Origin: Planctomycetia bacterium
GTDB lineage: Bacteria; Planctomycetota; Phycisphaerae; Phycisphaerales; SM1A02
Assembly: GCA_005798965.1 (NCBI GenBank)
Contig: SYIB01000062.1
Coordinates: forward strand, 1 to 31,297
Reading direction: 5' to 3'
Length of the DNA stretch: 31,297 nucleotides
Within the stretch, counting starts at the first letter, position 1. Each line of letters starts with the position of its first letter. A model generated the notes under the pieces. That model made no database searches, was not told where the DNA came from, and worked only from the letters and a program-made list of their open reading frames with translations. A program made the position numbers and the translations under genes. Positions 6,419-11,200 of the stretch are shown in pieces.

Positions 6419-8509
6419 ATGCCTCGCATCACGCTTCCTGACGGAACCGTCAAGTCCTACGACGCCCCCGTGACCGCCGCGCAGGTCGCCGCCGACATCG
6501 GCGCCGGCCTCGCGAAAGCCGCTCTGGGCGCCAAGGTCGACGGCATCCTCACCGACCTCGCCACCACGCTCGACCGCGACTGCGCGCTGGCCATCGTCAC
6601 CATGAAGCGCCGTGACGGAGGCATCGATCCCGAAGCCATCGCGCTCCTGCGGCACAGTGCGGCGCACGTGATGGCCGAGGCGATCCAGCGGCTCTTCCCC
6701 CTCGTGCGGCTCGTCTACGGGCCGTCGCTCGACACGGGCTTCTACTACGACATGGCCTTCTCCGATGACAAGGTGCCGAGCAGCGATGACTTCGCGCGCA
6801 TCGAGGCTGAGATGGCGAAGATCGTGGCCGAGGATCGCCGCTTCACGCGCTATGACCTGCCGCTGGCGGAGGGCATGACCAAGCTGCGCGGCGAGGGCAG
6901 CAAGTACAAGCTCGACAATGCCGAGCGCGCCGCCGAAGCGGGCAGCACCACGCTGAGCTGGTACGCCACCGGTACGCCTGGCAAGGACTGGGAGGACCTC
7001 TGCCGGGGCCCGCACGTGCCGAGCACGGGCCGTATCGGTGCCTTCAAGGTCATGAGCCTGGCCAGCAGCTACTGGAAGGGCGACGAGACCAGCGACCGCC
7101 TCACGCGCGTCTACGGCACGGCGTTCGCCACCAAGGCCGAGCTCGATGCCCACATGGTCCAGCTTGAAGAGGCCCGCAAGCGCGATCACCGCGTGCTCGG
7201 CAAGCAGCTTCGCCTCTTCCACATCGACGAGATGGTCGGCCAGGGGCTGATCCTCTGGACGCCCAAGGGTTCGATCGTCCGCAACGAACTCCAGAACTTC
7301 ATCGGGGCCGAACTGCGCAAGCAGGGCTACCAGCAGGTCTATACGCCGCACATCGGCAAGCTCGATCTCTACCGCACAAGCGGACATTTCCCCTACTACC
7401 GCGAGAGCCAGTACCCGCCGATCATCGAGCACGACGAGATGGCGCGCTTGGCCTCCGAAGGCTGCACCTGTGCAGACCTGAGCAACCGCATGGCCAAGGG
7501 CGAGGTCGACGGCTACATGCTCAAGCCGATGAATTGCCCGCACCACATCCGCATCTTCGCGAGTGAGCCGCACAGCTACCGTGACCTGCCCGTGCGCCTG
7601 GCGGAGTTCGGCACCGTGTACCGCTGGGAACAGTCCGGGGAGATCGGCGGCATGACGCGCGTACGCGGCTTCACGCAGGACGATGCCCACCTCTTCGTGC
7701 GCGAGGACCAGATCGCGCAGGAAGTGCTCGGCTGCCTCTCGCTCGTGAAGATCATCTTCGCCACGCTCGGTATGAACGAGTACCGCGTGCGCGTGGGCCT
7801 GCGTGATCCTGACAGCGCGAAGTACGTGGGTGACCCGTCGAACTGGGACAAGGCCGAGCAGGCCTGCCGCGACGCGGCGCGCTCGCTGGGCGTCCCGTTC
7901 AGTGAAGATCCCGGCGAGGCCGCCTTCTACGGCCCGAAGATCGACTTCGTCGTGAAGGATGTGATCGGCCGCTCGTGGCAGCTCGGCACCGTGCAGGTCG
8001 ACTACAACCTGCCGATCCGATTCGATCTCTCGTACGCAGGTGCAGACAACCAGCCCCACCGGCCGGTCATGATCCACCGCGCGCCGTTCGGCAGCATGGA
8101 ACGCTTCATCGGCTGCCTCATCGAGCACTTCGCCGGGGCGTTCCCGCTCTGGCTGAGCCCTGAGCAGGTGCGTGTGCTGCCGATCTCCGAGAAGAGCGCG
8201 GCCTACGCCGACGAGCTCTGCGCCGCCCTCAAGGCCCGCGGCATTCGCGCCGAGGCCGACCATTCGAACGAGCGCGTGCAGGCGAAGATCAAGATCGCCG
8301 CCGAGGAGAAGATCCCCTACATGGCCGTCGTGGGCCCGCGCGACGCCGAGAGCCGCGCCGTCAGCGTGCGCGCCCGCGGCACTGAGGCCAACCTCGGCGA
8401 GATGCCCTTTGACGCCTTCGTCGACGGCATCGCGCGCGAGGCGGAAGCGCGCATGCTCTCGGGTGCGCCTGGCTCGGTCCAGGCTTCGTTCGCCGCGCGG
8501 CCAGCCTGA
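6419..8509 (+). CDS. thrS: Threonine--tRNA ligase
   Basis: TGS domain 'ITLPDG', editing-domain 'LRHSAAHVMAEA' and 'DLCRGPHV', 'KPMNCPHH', 'RVRGFTQDDAH', 'AFYGPKID', 'MIHRAPFGSMERF'. Confidence 0.99.
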   Translation: MPRITLPDGTVKSYDAPVTAAQVAADIGAGLAKAALGAKVDGILTDLATTLDRDCALAIVTMKRRDGGIDPEAIALLRHSAAHVMAEAIQRLFPLVRLVYGPSLDTGFYYDMAFSDDKVPSSDDFARIEAEMAKIVAEDRRFTRYDLPLAEGMTKLRGEGSKYKLDNAERAAEAGSTTLSWYATGTPGKDWEDLCRGPHVPSTGRIGAFKVMSLASSYWKGDETSDRLTRVYGTAFATKAELDAHMVQLEEARKRDHRVLGKQLRLFHIDEMVGQGLILWTPKGSIVRNELQNFIGAELRKQGYQQVYTPHIGKLDLYRTSGHFPYYRESQYPPIIEHDEMARLASEGCTCADLSNRMAKGEVDGYMLKPMNCPHHIRIFASEPHSYRDLPVRLAEFGTVYRWEQSGEIGGMTRVRGFTQDDAHLFVREDQIAQEVLGCLSLVKIIFATLGMNEYRVRVGLRDPDSAKYVGDPSNWDKAEQACRDAARSLGVPFSEDPGEAAFYGPKIDFVVKDVIGRSWQLGTVQVDYNLPIRFDLSYAGADNQPHRPVMIHRAPFGSMERFIGCLIEHFAGAFPLWLSPEQVRVLPISEKSAAYADELCAALKARGIRAEADHSNERVQAKIKIAAEEKIPYMAVVGPRDAESRAVSVRARGTEANLGEMPFDAFVDGIAREAEARMLSGAPGSVQASFAARPA

Positions 8510-8540
8510 TGCCGGTCGAGCCGACGCCCGGAGCAGCGAT

Positions 8541-8572
8541 CACCCCCGGTCCGCGCACCGGGTGTGTTTCTC
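8541..8572 (+). terminator. Probable intrinsic terminator of thrS
   Basis: CACCCCCGGT-CCGCGC-ACCGGGTGTG stem-loop followed by TTTCTC, about 30 nt after the thrS stop. Confidence 0.55.
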
Positions 8573-8603
8573 CCGCCGCAACCGCGGAATTCACGGTGTC
8601 TGC

Positions 8604-8632
8604 TTGTGCCGGGCCGGATCTTGGGCTAGTGT
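8604..8632 (+). promoter_or_regulatory. Putative sigma70 promoter for the infC leader transcript
   Basis: TTGTGC (8604-8609), a 17-nt spacer, then TAGTGT (8627-8632), just downstream of the thrS terminator. Confidence 0.4.
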
Positions 8633-8648
8633 CCGCACGGCGCCTCGT

Positions 8649-8823
8649 GGCGTCGCTTCCCCATGCAGCGGACCATCGCCGAATGATGACTTCCCCCACT
8701 CGCGTCCTCCCATGAGGCCGTCGCGAGCGAGCATGGACATCCTCCACCCACGCAGTGGAAACCTGACATCAGGTTCACGGTTGCTGTCAGCGCGCCGTGG
8801 CCATTCCCGTCCGAGCTGACGCC
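8649..8823 (+). ncRNA. Candidate structured RNA (infC leader or 6S-like RNA); family unassigned
   Basis: Nested long-range pairings GGCGTC/GACGCC, GCT/AGC, CGGAC/GTCCG and GAATG/CATTC enclose internal hairpins CTCGCG/CGCGAG, TGGA/TCCA, CCAC/GTGG and AACCTG/CAGGTT. The fold ends 1 nt before the infC SD. Folded by eye only. Confidence 0.35.
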
Positions 8824-8835
8824 CAGGAGCCTCCC

Positions 8836-9528
8836 ATCAGCCAGTTCCCGCCTCGCCGTCCTCCCTTCCAGCGCGACTTCGCCCCCGCCGGCCCGCGCAT
8901 CAATGACCGCATCCGCATCAGCCCGATCCGCCTGATCGACGAGCACGGCACCATGATCGGCGTCGTCGAGACCGACGAGGCCAAGCGCATGGCCCAGGAG
9001 GCCGGCCTCGACTTGGTCGAGATCGCCGCCGATGTGCGCCCACCGGTTTGCAAGATCATGGACTTCGGCAAGTTCAAGTACGAGCAGGCCAAGACCGAGA
9101 AGAAGAACCGCCAGAACTCCAAGGGCGGCGAACTCAAGGAAGTCCGGCTCGGGCGCAGCATGAAGATCGGCGTGCACGACGTCGAGCTTCGCGTGCGACA
9201 GGCCCGGGCATTCCTCATCGAAGGCAACAAGGTCCAGATCGTGCAGAGCTTCCGCGGCGCGCGTGAACTCGCGCACCGCGAGATCGGTGACCAGCTCATC
9301 AGGCAGGTCATCAACGCCCTGCTTGAGGTGGCGCGCCTCGACATGTCGCCCCGCATGGCTGGTCGCCGGCAGTCGGCGATCCTCTCGCCCGACCGCACCA
9401 AGATCGACACCTACAAGCGCAAGATGGCTGCTGCCGGCCAGAAGATCGAGGGCTCCAAGGAGCTCCCGCCGCAGGAACCCGAAAGCGCTGACGACGGGCC
9501 TGACGAGGGCAGCGATCACGCCGAGTGA
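8836..9528 (+). CDS. infC: Translation initiation factor IF-3, probable non-canonical ATC start
   Basis: 'RINDRIRISPIRLID', 'GLDLVEIA..VRPPVCKIMDFGKFKYE', 'LKEVRL', 'FLIEGNKV'. SD AGGAG (8825-8829) lies 6 nt before an in-frame ATC at 8836. The ORF-track GTG at 8797 lacks an SD. Confidence 0.93.
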   Translation: MSQFPPRRPPFQRDFAPAGPRINDRIRISPIRLIDEHGTMIGVVETDEAKRMAQEAGLDLVEIAADVRPPVCKIMDFGKFKYEQAKTEKKNRQNSKGGELKEVRLGRSMKIGVHDVELRVRQARAFLIEGNKVQIVQSFRGARELAHREIGDQLIRQVINALLEVARLDMSPRMAGRRQSAILSPDRTKIDTYKRKMAAAGQKIEGSKELPPQEPESADDGPDEGSDHAE

Positions 9529-9561
9529 TCCGCAGCATCGCTCGCACGCGAGCACCGCACG

Positions 9562-9587
9562 ACCGCGCCGACTCGGCGCGGTTTTTT
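9562..9587 (+). terminator. Intrinsic terminator after infC
   Basis: ACCGCGCCG-ACT-CGGCGCGGT perfect 9-bp stem followed by a T run (9582-9587). Confidence 0.85.
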
Positions 9588-9588
9588 C

Positions 9589-9632
9589 ATGCAATCGCTT
9601 GCATAGTATGCAGAAGGCTGTATATTCATCCA
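9589..9632 (+). promoter_or_regulatory. arg operon promoter with overlapping ARG-box-like operators
   Basis: AT-rich island directly upstream of argR. Palindromes ATGCAA-N4-TTGCAT (9589-9604), TGCATAGTATGCA (9600-9612) and TGTAT-ATTC-ATCCA (9619-9632). -35/-10-like TTGCAT (9599-9604), N16, TATATT (9621-9626). Confidence 0.6.
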
Positions 9633-9639
9633 CTTCCCC

Positions 9640-10107
9640 ATGGCTGCCACCAAGGTCCAACGTCATCGTGCCATCGCCCGCCTCATCGCCGGCGCCGAGC
9701 TGCACAGCCAGCACGAGCTGCAGCGCGAGCTCGCTGCCCAGGGCATTCGCACCACGCAAGCCACGCTCTCGCGTGACCTTGCGGAACTCGGGGTGCTCAA
9801 GGGCGCCGGCGGCTATCGGCTGCAGGGTGGCGCCCCCGAGCCCTCGGTCGATGCGCTCGATGCCCTTGCGCGGCGGCTCCTGGCCGGCGTCGAACAGGCC
9901 GGGAACCTCGTGGTGCTCCACACGCCGCCGGGCCAAGCCAGCGCGCTGGCGCTCCAACTTGACCGATCGAGCATGCGCGGCGTCGTCGGCACCATCGCCG
10001 GCGATGACTGCGTCTTCGTGGCCACGCGCACGGCATCGAACGCCAAGGAACTCGTACGTCGGCTGACCGTCGCCGCCTCGCCCGCCCGCCGCAAGGCCAC
10101 GGCCTGA
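9640..10107 (+). CDS. argR: Arginine repressor
   Basis: wHTH 'SQHELQRELAAQGIRTTQATLSRDL', C-terminal 'NLVVLHTPPGQA' and 'VVGTIAGDD'. Confidence 0.96.
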   Translation: MAATKVQRHRAIARLIAGAELHSQHELQRELAAQGIRTTQATLSRDLAELGVLKGAGGYRLQGGAPEPSVDALDALARRLLAGVEQAGNLVVLHTPPGQASALALQLDRSSMRGVVGTIAGDDCVFVATRTASNAKELVRRLTVAASPARRKATA

Positions 10108-10135
10108 GCGGCCGGCCGCGCCTTCCCCCACCACC

Positions 10136-11200
10136 ATGACCACGCCCACCCTTCCCGTTGCCGTTGTCGGTGCCGCTGGCTACAGCGGAGCCGAGCTCGT
10201 CGCCATGCTGGCTGCGCACCCCGAGGTGTCGGTCGTTGGGGTCTATGGCTCGGGCTCGCGCGCCGGCAACGAAGCGCTGTCGAGCGTGCATCCACGCCTC
10301 CGCGGTGTGGCCGACCTGCCCATCGAGGCGGCCGATCCGTCCGCCATCATCGCCTCGGGCGCCAAGGCGGTTTTTCTCTGCACTCCACACGAAGCAAGCG
10401 AGGCCTTGGCCCCGGCGCTGCTCGATGCTGGCCTCGCTGTGCTGGATCTCTCGGCATCCTTCCGCCTGCGCGATCCCGCGCTCTACCCCGCGCACTACGG
10501 CTTCGAGCATCGCCATCCTGACTTGCTGGCGACTGCGGTCTATGGCCTCGCGGAGCTCAGACGGAATGATCTGATCGGTGCGCAGCTCATCGCCGTGCCC
10601 GGCTGCTATCCGACCAGCGTCATCCTCCCGGTGCGACCGCTCGTCGATGCTGGTCTCGTCCTGCCCGATCGTGTGATCGTCGACAGCGCCAGCGGTGTCA
10701 GCGGTGCAGGCCGAACCGCCGCCGTCAAGAGCCTGTTCTGCGAGGTCTCGATGCAACCCTACGGCGTGCTCTCGCACCGCCACCAACCTGAGATGGCGCA
10801 GGAAACCGGCGCCGATGTGCTGTTCACGCCCCATCTGGGCTGCTGGGACCGCGGCATCCTCTCCACGATCCATGCGGACCTTGCGCCGGGCACCACCGTC
10901 GATGCCTGCCGCCAAGCGCTCACCGATCGCTACGCGGCCAGTGCCTTTGTGCGAGTGCTGCCCGAGGGGTCGTGGCCCAGCGTGGCGGGCGTCGAGCGGA
11001 CGAACTTCTGCGACATCGGGCTTGGTGGCTGCGATCGCCGCGGCCACCTGGTCATCGTGAGTGCCATCGACAACCTGGTCAAGGGCGCGGCTGGCCAGGC
11101 GCTGCAGTGCATGAACCTCCGCTTCGGCTTCCCCGAGTCCATGGGCCTTGGCCTTTCCCGTCACGCCAACGCAAGCACCAACGCCGGAGCCTTGGCGTGA
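10136..11200 (+). CDS. argC: N-acetyl-gamma-glutamyl-phosphate reductase
   Basis: 'VVGAAGYSGAEL', catalytic 'VPGCYPT', 'SGVSGAGR', 'SAIDNLVKGAAGQALQCMN'. Confidence 0.98.
   Translation: MTTPTLPVAVVGAAGYSGAELVAMLAAHPEVSVVGVYGSGSRAGNEALSSVHPRLRGVADLPIEAADPSAIIASGAKAVFLCTPHEASEALAPALLDAGLAVLDLSASFRLRDPALYPAHYGFEHRHPDLLATAVYGLAELRRNDLIGAQLIAVPGCYPTSVILPVRPLVDAGLVLPDRVIVDSASGVSGAGRTAAVKSLFCEVSMQPYGVLSHRHQPEMAQETGADVLFTPHLGCWDRGILSTIHADLAPGTTVDACRQALTDRYAASAFVRVLPEGSWPSVAGVERTNFCDIGLGGCDRRGHLVIVSAIDNLVKGAAGQALQCMNLRFGFPESMGLGLSRHANASTNAGALA

Follow-up and report, generated by a model that had tools for sequence, protein, structure and literature searches.

A chain of AUGA-linked upstream reading frames in the leader of the infC gene of a planctomycete and its relatives

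How should the region between thrS and infC, the gene of translation initiation factor 3 (IF3), be understood in a planctomycete genome? IF3 sets start-codon fidelity in all bacteria. To our knowledge its autoregulation has so far been explained by the AUU start codon of its gene, and we know of hardly any work on translation initiation in Planctomycetes. In the window analyzed here (31,297 nt of contig SYIB01000062.1 from a member of the Phycisphaerales), the region in question forms the 5' leader of the infC transcript. It comprises about 197 nt (positions 8639 to 8835 of the plus strand, on which all features described below lie unless indicated), is present as a single copy in the genome and belongs to no Rfam family. 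The initial annotation had viewed it as a foldable RNA, either a cis-regulatory leader or switch for IF3 or a divergent 6S-like RNA that is co-transcribed with infC.

The locus and the start codon of infC

The gene upstream of infC is thrS, encoding threonyl-tRNA synthetase (6419–8509; Pfam tRNA-synt_2b, HGTP_anticodon, tRNA_SAD and TGS). The order thrS-infC is kept in 18 of the 30 loci from relatives, which are freshwater Phycisphaerales and Phycisphaeraceae MAGs. A terminator scan located a terminator-like hairpin with a T-rich tail 3' of thrS (8545–8572, the hairpin itself at about 8545–8563), confirming what had been described before, and the sequence of this element is not conserved in the genus. 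An alignment of ten species of the genus cannot be extended over the 80 nt that follow thrS, and the sequence is almost invariant from about position 8585. Conservation begins abruptly with the block CGGAATTCACGGYGTCTGC (8585–8603), which abuts the −35 element and contains a GAATTC palindrome, and 5' of which the sequence is immediately unalignable across the genus. This block may serve the infC promoter as an UP element or as the site of a regulator.

The putative infC promoter consists of TTGTGC (8604–8609), a spacer of 17 nt and TAGTGT (8627–8632); the initial annotation had recognized it, and it is invariant in the genus. A promoter scan with the E. coli consensus gave no call at 8604–8632. 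A motif of the form TTGnnn-17-TAnnnT is found 190–365 nt 5' of the infC start in nearly all related genera, and a long infC leader with a promoter of its own is therefore a conserved trait throughout the order. From the position of these elements we infer that transcription of infC starts near 8639.

The coding region of infC (8836–9528, Pfam IF3_N and IF3_C) begins with an AUC codon at 8836, in frame and 6 nt 3' of the Shine-Dalgarno sequence (SD) AGGAG at 8825–8829, which had correctly been placed at the end of the leader. A GGAG/AGGA-type motif before the start is conserved in all relatives, and an SD-like motif together with an in-frame AUC, AUU or AUA occurs at the equivalent place in each of the 30 relatives, which were drawn from the genus, family and order of the host. 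Across 87 loci the infC start codons are 43 ATC, 28 ATA, 14 ATT, 1 GTG and 1 ATG, so that 85 of the 87 are of the AUH type, and infC has an AUH start in all of 40 genomes that were sampled throughout the class. In several relatives an in-frame stop codon lies just 6–15 nt 5' of the AUH start, which rules out an earlier start of infC. On these comparative grounds we rejected the GTG at 8797, from which the ORF lister had begun the gene (ORF 8797–9528), in favor of AUC 8836. ORF callers restricted to ATG, GTG and TTG miss the AUC, AUU and AUA starts of infC in these genomes and thus extend the gene to an upstream GTG, here that at 8797; the same error in the infC start is probable for existing annotations of this lineage.

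A conserved AUU, AUC or AUA start behind an SD is the hallmark of IF3 autoregulation through a non-canonical start codon, and judged by its sequence infC of this planctomycete is a member of this known class. IF3 would accordingly be expected to repress its own initiation at the infC AUC. Read from this start, the protein carries an N-terminal extension of about 20 residues that is rich in proline and arginine (ISQFPPRRPPFQRDFAPAGP, 8836–8895) and an acidic C-terminal tail (…PPQEPESADDGPDEGSDHAE, 9430–9528), both of which lie outside the two Pfam domains.

The genes 3' of infC are argR and argC (Pfam; 9529–11200), not rpmI-rplT, and the sole rplT match in the genome is found on another contig (C188, 2483–2803), which indicates that the classical thrS-infC-rpmI-rplT operon has been split in this lineage. 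This arrangement bears on the possibility that the leader is of the L20 type, i.e. a ribosomal-protein leader such as that before infC-rpmI-rplT in Bacillus, to which it corresponds in position and, with about 200 nt, also roughly in length (PMC1865079). Besides the missing operon partners, the region 8450–8950 gave no match to the corresponding model RF00558 at the gathering score or at E-values up to 10, and the leader holds no terminator-like site, the sole sites being those at 8545–8563 upstream of the promoter. With model match, operon context and leader terminator all lacking, we regard an L20 leader as effectively refuted and very improbable.

Linked reading frames in the leader and in its relatives

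What the initial annotation had missed is a chain of ATGA-coupled upstream open reading frames (uORFs). From about nucleotide 25 to nucleotide 181 the leader is tiled by three uORFs that start with AUG, each of them linked to the next by an AUGA overlap. The first, uORF0 (MQRTIAE, 8663–8686), ends with a UGA that overlaps the AUG of uORF-A (MMTSPTRVLP, 8683–8715), and the UGA of uORF-A overlaps in turn the AUG of uORF-B (35 codons, 8712–8819); the co-directional frames thus overlap as ATGA at 8683–8686 and at 8712–8715. The stop codon of uORF-B (UGA, 8817–8819) is separated from the infC SD by 5 nt. The chain opens with an AUG that lies 24 nt from the inferred 5' terminus and 3' of a hairpin, and no SD precedes any of the uORF AUGs in this leader.

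All three frames have identical lengths in the ten species of the genus. uORF0 is kept in all of them with variation at codon 6 alone, and uORF-B is of equal length throughout. None of the 14 nucleotides of their start and stop signals varies within the genus, while 51 of the 211 alignment columns do. As a separate observation, the nucleotides around the start of uORF-B, CCTCCCATGAG (from 8706), recur around that of infC, CCTCCCATCAG (from 8830), where the AUG is replaced by AUC; over the longer segments CCTCCCATGAGGCC (8706–8719) and CCTCCCATCAGCCA (8830–8843), 11 of 14 positions are identical. This similarity could stem from a duplication of the infC start site or from a context requirement common to both starts.

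Is this arrangement a peculiarity of the genus? The sequence of the leader appears to be. A profile built from the genus leaders (nhmmer) detected no homologue at other sites of the organism's own genome, in 80 loci from metagenomes or, outside the genus, in the 30 relatives' loci, and in a multi-genus MAFFT alignment of the leaders only promoter, SD and start codon were aligned. The layout, however, recurs in other genera, and counterparts of uORF-A are present in most related leaders. There, a uORF of 9–13 codons is joined, by AUGA or across a gap of about 4 nt, to a uORF of 26–61 codons, and the longer frame terminates 6–34 nt 5' of the AUH codon, in many cases with a stop that is part of the SD (UGAGGA). 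The leaders that bear this relay of uORFs do not align with those of our genus and mostly show no similarity to one another; by our count at least 12 leader types without evident sequence similarity carry it.

The frequency of the layout was compared with that in shuffled sequences. A chain of two uORFs is present in 18 of 29 non-redundant Phycisphaerales leaders, compared to 0.53 ± 0.72 (maximum 3) in shuffles, where it has to be considered that the relatives are kin and that the shuffle statistics consequently overstate their independence. A uORF of at least 25 codons that ends between −3 and 40 nt from the infC start was found in 19 of the 29 (6.8 ± 2.2 in shuffles that preserve the last 40 nt), and at least one ATGA link in 18 of the 29 (4.1 ± 1.6 in shuffles). 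About one third of the related leaders fall outside the chain thresholds used. The ATGA link is not enriched in a control set of 32 distant infC loci, mostly from Rhodobacterales and other phyla (3 of 32, 5.2 ± 2.0 expected), and the genome-wide background of a linked uORF pair, counted on both strands, amounts to 0.013 per 200 nt. Within the class sample of 40 genomes, the relay occurs mostly in the family of the host, plus one or a few neighbouring families, and one further family is represented by a single relay-bearing genome. Further species beyond the main set show the same uORF layout. The sequence comparisons thus show that what is conserved across the Phycisphaerales family is the architecture of the relay, not its sequence, its peptides or its overall fold.

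In those groups of uORFs that can be aligned, substitutions are spread evenly over the three codon positions and most of them change the amino acid, and between two relatives the uORF-B peptides differ by an in-frame indel of three codons. The uORF peptides are not conserved, and hence the act of translation rather than its product seems to matter, in the manner of regulatory uORFs. Two further candidates were examined and discarded. Genuine small proteins would be at odds with the absence of codon-position bias and of any Pfam match for uORF-B, and an amino-acid attenuator with the absence of codon runs in the three uORF peptides and of a terminator in the leader. The long alternative ORFs of the region (8361–8747 on the minus strand, 8172–8819 on the plus strand and 8626–10149 on the minus strand) likewise gave no Pfam match.

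The relatives display two variations. In 15 leaders from two sister groups, an extended −10 element, TGnTATnnT, precedes the first uORF's AUG by 6–8 nt. This AUG thus falls on the predicted 5' end of the transcript or no more than two bases away from it, and the first uORF is therefore predicted to be leaderless or nearly so. In these loci (L035, L038, L040–L042, L044, L118–L125 and L127), the infC mRNA would begin, about 200–250 nt upstream of infC, with a leaderless uORF of 9–10 codons, whose peptide often ends with (R/H)-S-A, encoded by TCCGCATGA. The second variation is seen in L070 (930–985) and L034, which represent the same lower-GC species: here uORF-B contains a perfect 9-bp hairpin, CTCTTGTCA-TTTC-TGACAAGAG, which together with a T-rich stretch between it and the nearby infC SD resembles a terminator. 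Some relatives may thus add transcription attenuation to the relay.

Could the uORFs serve merely to keep ribosomes on a C-rich leader and to shield it from Rho-dependent termination or attack by RNases? Transcription of infC or the stability of its mRNA would then track translational capacity, with AUGA simply as the most compact form of tiling. The uORFs do cover nearly the whole leader, which is C-rich and G-poor: its GC skew is −0.176, compared to −0.015 ± 0.092 in 197-nt windows of the contig, and in most related leaders C outnumbers G by a factor of more than 1.3. However, this skew deviates by just about 1.75 standard deviations from the mean of the contig, and rut sites are not reliably predictable. 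Shielding by itself would moreover result in positive, not homeostatic, feedback, and it leaves unexplained both the stop codon beside the SD and the leaderless first uORF of the sister genera. We therefore consider shielding a rather improbable function of the uORFs.

Structure of the leader RNA

The conservation within the genus indicates that the relay is not the whole story. The mean pairwise divergence of the leader within the genus is 7.7%, compared to 27.7% at the four-fold degenerate sites of infC, i.e. the leader is about 3.6-fold more constrained. A relay that is indifferent to sequence would not need near-complete conservation of its nucleotides, and an additional constraint must accordingly be present. 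Is this constraint an RNA structure?

The initial annotation had proposed a set of nested closing helices that enclose four hairpins, together with alternative pairings that would open the closing stem beside the SD. The complementary segments on which this proposal was built are all present. The minimum free energy (MFE) of 8639–8840 is −76.9 kcal/mol, compared to −67.7 ± 4.4 kcal/mol for dinucleotide shuffles, of which 5 out of 200 were as good (z = −2.12), and the MFE fold is multibranched. The predicted foldability thus holds to a modest degree for this leader, but not for those of its relatives, which overall fold no better than shuffles (mean z = −0.47 ± 1.29 for 29 non-redundant leaders). 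The closing helices fared worse. The helix 8649–8657/8814–8823 is paired to 82%, with single pairs broken in 5–6 of the ten species, and the helix 8681–8685/8802–8806, also paired to 82%, is broken in 4 of the ten. Several pairs of the nested helices are thus disrupted in 40–60% of the species of the genus, with no compensatory changes in the ten-species alignment. The same comparison contradicts a switch that opens the closing stem. SD and start codon do not appear sequestered either: the mean z-score of their pairing relative to upstream-shuffled sequences is +0.44 over the 29 leaders, and the leader studied here has a pairing score of 0.46, compared to 0.49 for its shuffled versions. Since the related leaders fold no better than shuffles and leave SD and start unsequestered, neither a conserved global fold nor an SD switch is supported.

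Covariation is restricted to two local hairpins, the only ones in the leader with compensatory changes in the genus. The first, GGCGCC-UCGU-GGCGUC (8639–8654), forms the predicted 5' terminus of the transcript; pair 6/19 of the RNAalifold consensus occurs as A-U, G-U and G-C. In this hairpin GGCGUC (8649–8654) pairs locally, and with covariation, with 8639–8644, although the same segment had been claimed for the outer closing helix. By eye, three other leader types were also seen to carry hairpins, unrelated in sequence, immediately 3' of their predicted transcription start. The second (8699–8727) is a two-tier hairpin with an outer stem CUCGCG/CGCGAG and an inner stem CCUC/GAGG, and in it a compensatory change, from U-A to G-C, and a wobble change were each observed once. 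It was among the enclosed hairpins of the earlier proposal and stands, whereas the others in that set show no compensatory change. The AUGA junction between uORF-A and uORF-B is located in and beside its apical loop. Every leader type examined has a hairpin that either sits at the AUGA junction or follows it by 8–10 nt, and in the junction hairpin of the relatives all four pairs show compensatory changes between subtypes.

These data allow an alternative to be judged in which the leader is a structured cis-regulatory RNA that binds a protein or ligand (such as IF3, one of the ribosomal proteins or an effector of the riboswitch type) and in which the uORFs are incidental or secondary. The 3.6-fold tighter conservation, the z-score of about −2.1 and the two hairpins with compensatory changes, one of them with a covarying counterpart near the junction in relatives, are what such an RNA would predict. 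On the other hand, no Rfam family matches the leader, its long-range helices are contradicted by the comparison within the genus, the related leaders show neither a general excess of structure nor SD sequestration, and outside the genus both sequence homology and fold are lost, yet the layout of the uORFs persists. We consider this alternative unlikely. The relay remains our preferred reading, with the two hairpins as its possible accessories.

A search with the 4227 covariance models of Rfam 15 returned nothing at the gathering threshold, and at E-values up to 10 just two chance-level matches to eukaryotic lncRNAs; the leader matches neither 6S RNA nor the L20 leader nor any riboswitch. For 6S RNA (RF00013), or another stand-alone small RNA co-transcribed with infC, this leaves as a resemblance the length alone, about 180–200 nt. 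The predicted fold is multibranched and not a long interrupted hairpin, and the element continues without a break into the infC SD. A better candidate exists elsewhere: on the minus strand of another contig (C41, 24326–24510, locus L232), model positions 1–187 of 6S RNA are matched with 29 bits, below the gathering score of 46.4 (E = 3.9e-4), and this sub-threshold but full-length match is probably the divergent 6S RNA of this planctomycete, which argues that the leader is not. A 6S-like nature of the leader, as initially considered, can hence be given hardly any probability.

Taken together, the comparative data support a cis-regulatory leader of infC in the broad sense, the part of the original proposal that is retained, whereas its closing stems and the switch are contradicted.

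Proposed mechanism and comparison with known systems

How could a series of mini-ORFs act on the synthesis of IF3? Overexpression of IF3 markedly reduces re-initiation in E. coli (PMC2268962), and the factor antagonises leaderless translation and discriminates against non-canonical triplets (reviewed in PMC4611024). ATGA overlaps provide translational coupling by termination-reinitiation (PMC6728339). Since IF3 opposes non-canonical starts, re-initiation and leaderless initiation alike, the last being the mode predicted for the first uORF of the sister genera, each step of the relay should be IF3-sensitive. We propose that ribosomes would load at the first uORF, would proceed from uORF to uORF by termination-reinitiation at AUGA, and would be released beside the infC SD, where they could re-initiate at the AUC. 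Abundant IF3 would damp every step of the relay and scarce IF3 would favor every step. With the relay added to the AUC codon, IF3 would thus restrain its own synthesis more steeply than through that codon by itself. Two hairpins, one 5'-terminal and the other at the AUGA junction or shortly after it, would be accessory parts.

We are evenly divided on whether the relay is indeed a re-initiation chain that reinforces IF3 autoregulation. The more far-reaching proposal, that the leader is a serial, multi-step and ultrasensitive re-initiation sensor of free IF3 which evolved within one Phycisphaerales family, is offered tentatively, as a possibility that we would not call probable. Several considerations speak against the relay: its AUGs lack an SD in this leader, and the first of them lies behind a hairpin; the infC SD is unsequestered, and de novo initiation could therefore bypass the uORFs; terminating ribosomes might occlude the SD instead of feeding it; and the tight nucleotide conservation within the genus exceeds what the relay accounts for. 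If the mechanism holds, IF3 would be subject to a second, re-initiation-based layer of control beside its start codon, and the leader would make a compact natural test bed for the action of IF3 on re-initiation and leaderless initiation in vivo.

In E. coli, infC starts with AUU and has neither a long leader nor uORFs, its promoters being located inside thrS. The planctomycete gene resembles this type of autoregulation in its non-canonical start behind a good SD, and differs from it in the leader of about 197 nt and the relay of three uORFs that precede the AUC. Leader uORFs whose translation, not product, sets downstream expression are familiar from the trp, thr and pheST leaders and from those of the mgtL and tnaC types. 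The short uORFs described here agree with these attenuators and Rho-dependent leaders in that their translation appears to count; in contrast, there are several of them in series, with no regulatory codon runs, no terminator or antiterminator and no conserved arrest motif. The L20 leader of B. subtilis (RF00558), which acts through transcription attenuation upon binding of L20 (PMC1865079), is comparable in that it controls its operon from the same place before infC and over a similar length (about 200 nt), but its model, its downstream rpmI-rplT and its terminator have no counterpart here.

With systems of ATGA-mediated termination-reinitiation coupling (PMC6728339, PMC10666635) the leader shares the AUGA overlaps and the short distance between the last stop codon and an SD-led start. 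The known cases join real protein genes in operons, whereas here mini-ORFs that are not conserved are chained within a 5' leader. In full-text literature searches we found no paper describing uORFs before a bacterial infC. The autoregulation of IF3 from an AUH start is a known class, of which the uORF relay before infC is not a part.

The logic of the leader comes closest to eukaryotic control by uORFs. In the autoregulation of eIF1 and eIF5 (PMC3326321), and in GCN4, a weak start combined with uORFs on the mRNA of a fidelity factor is the shared theme, whereby expression of the factor reflects how stringent start selection or re-initiation is. The present system differs from such eukaryotic sensing in being bacterial, in involving no cap-dependent scanning and in uORFs that overlap one another, and the resemblance is one of analogy in logic, not of homology. 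If the proposed mechanism is correct, the infC leader of these Phycisphaerales would constitute a bacterial counterpart of uORF control of the GCN4 or eIF1/eIF5 type.
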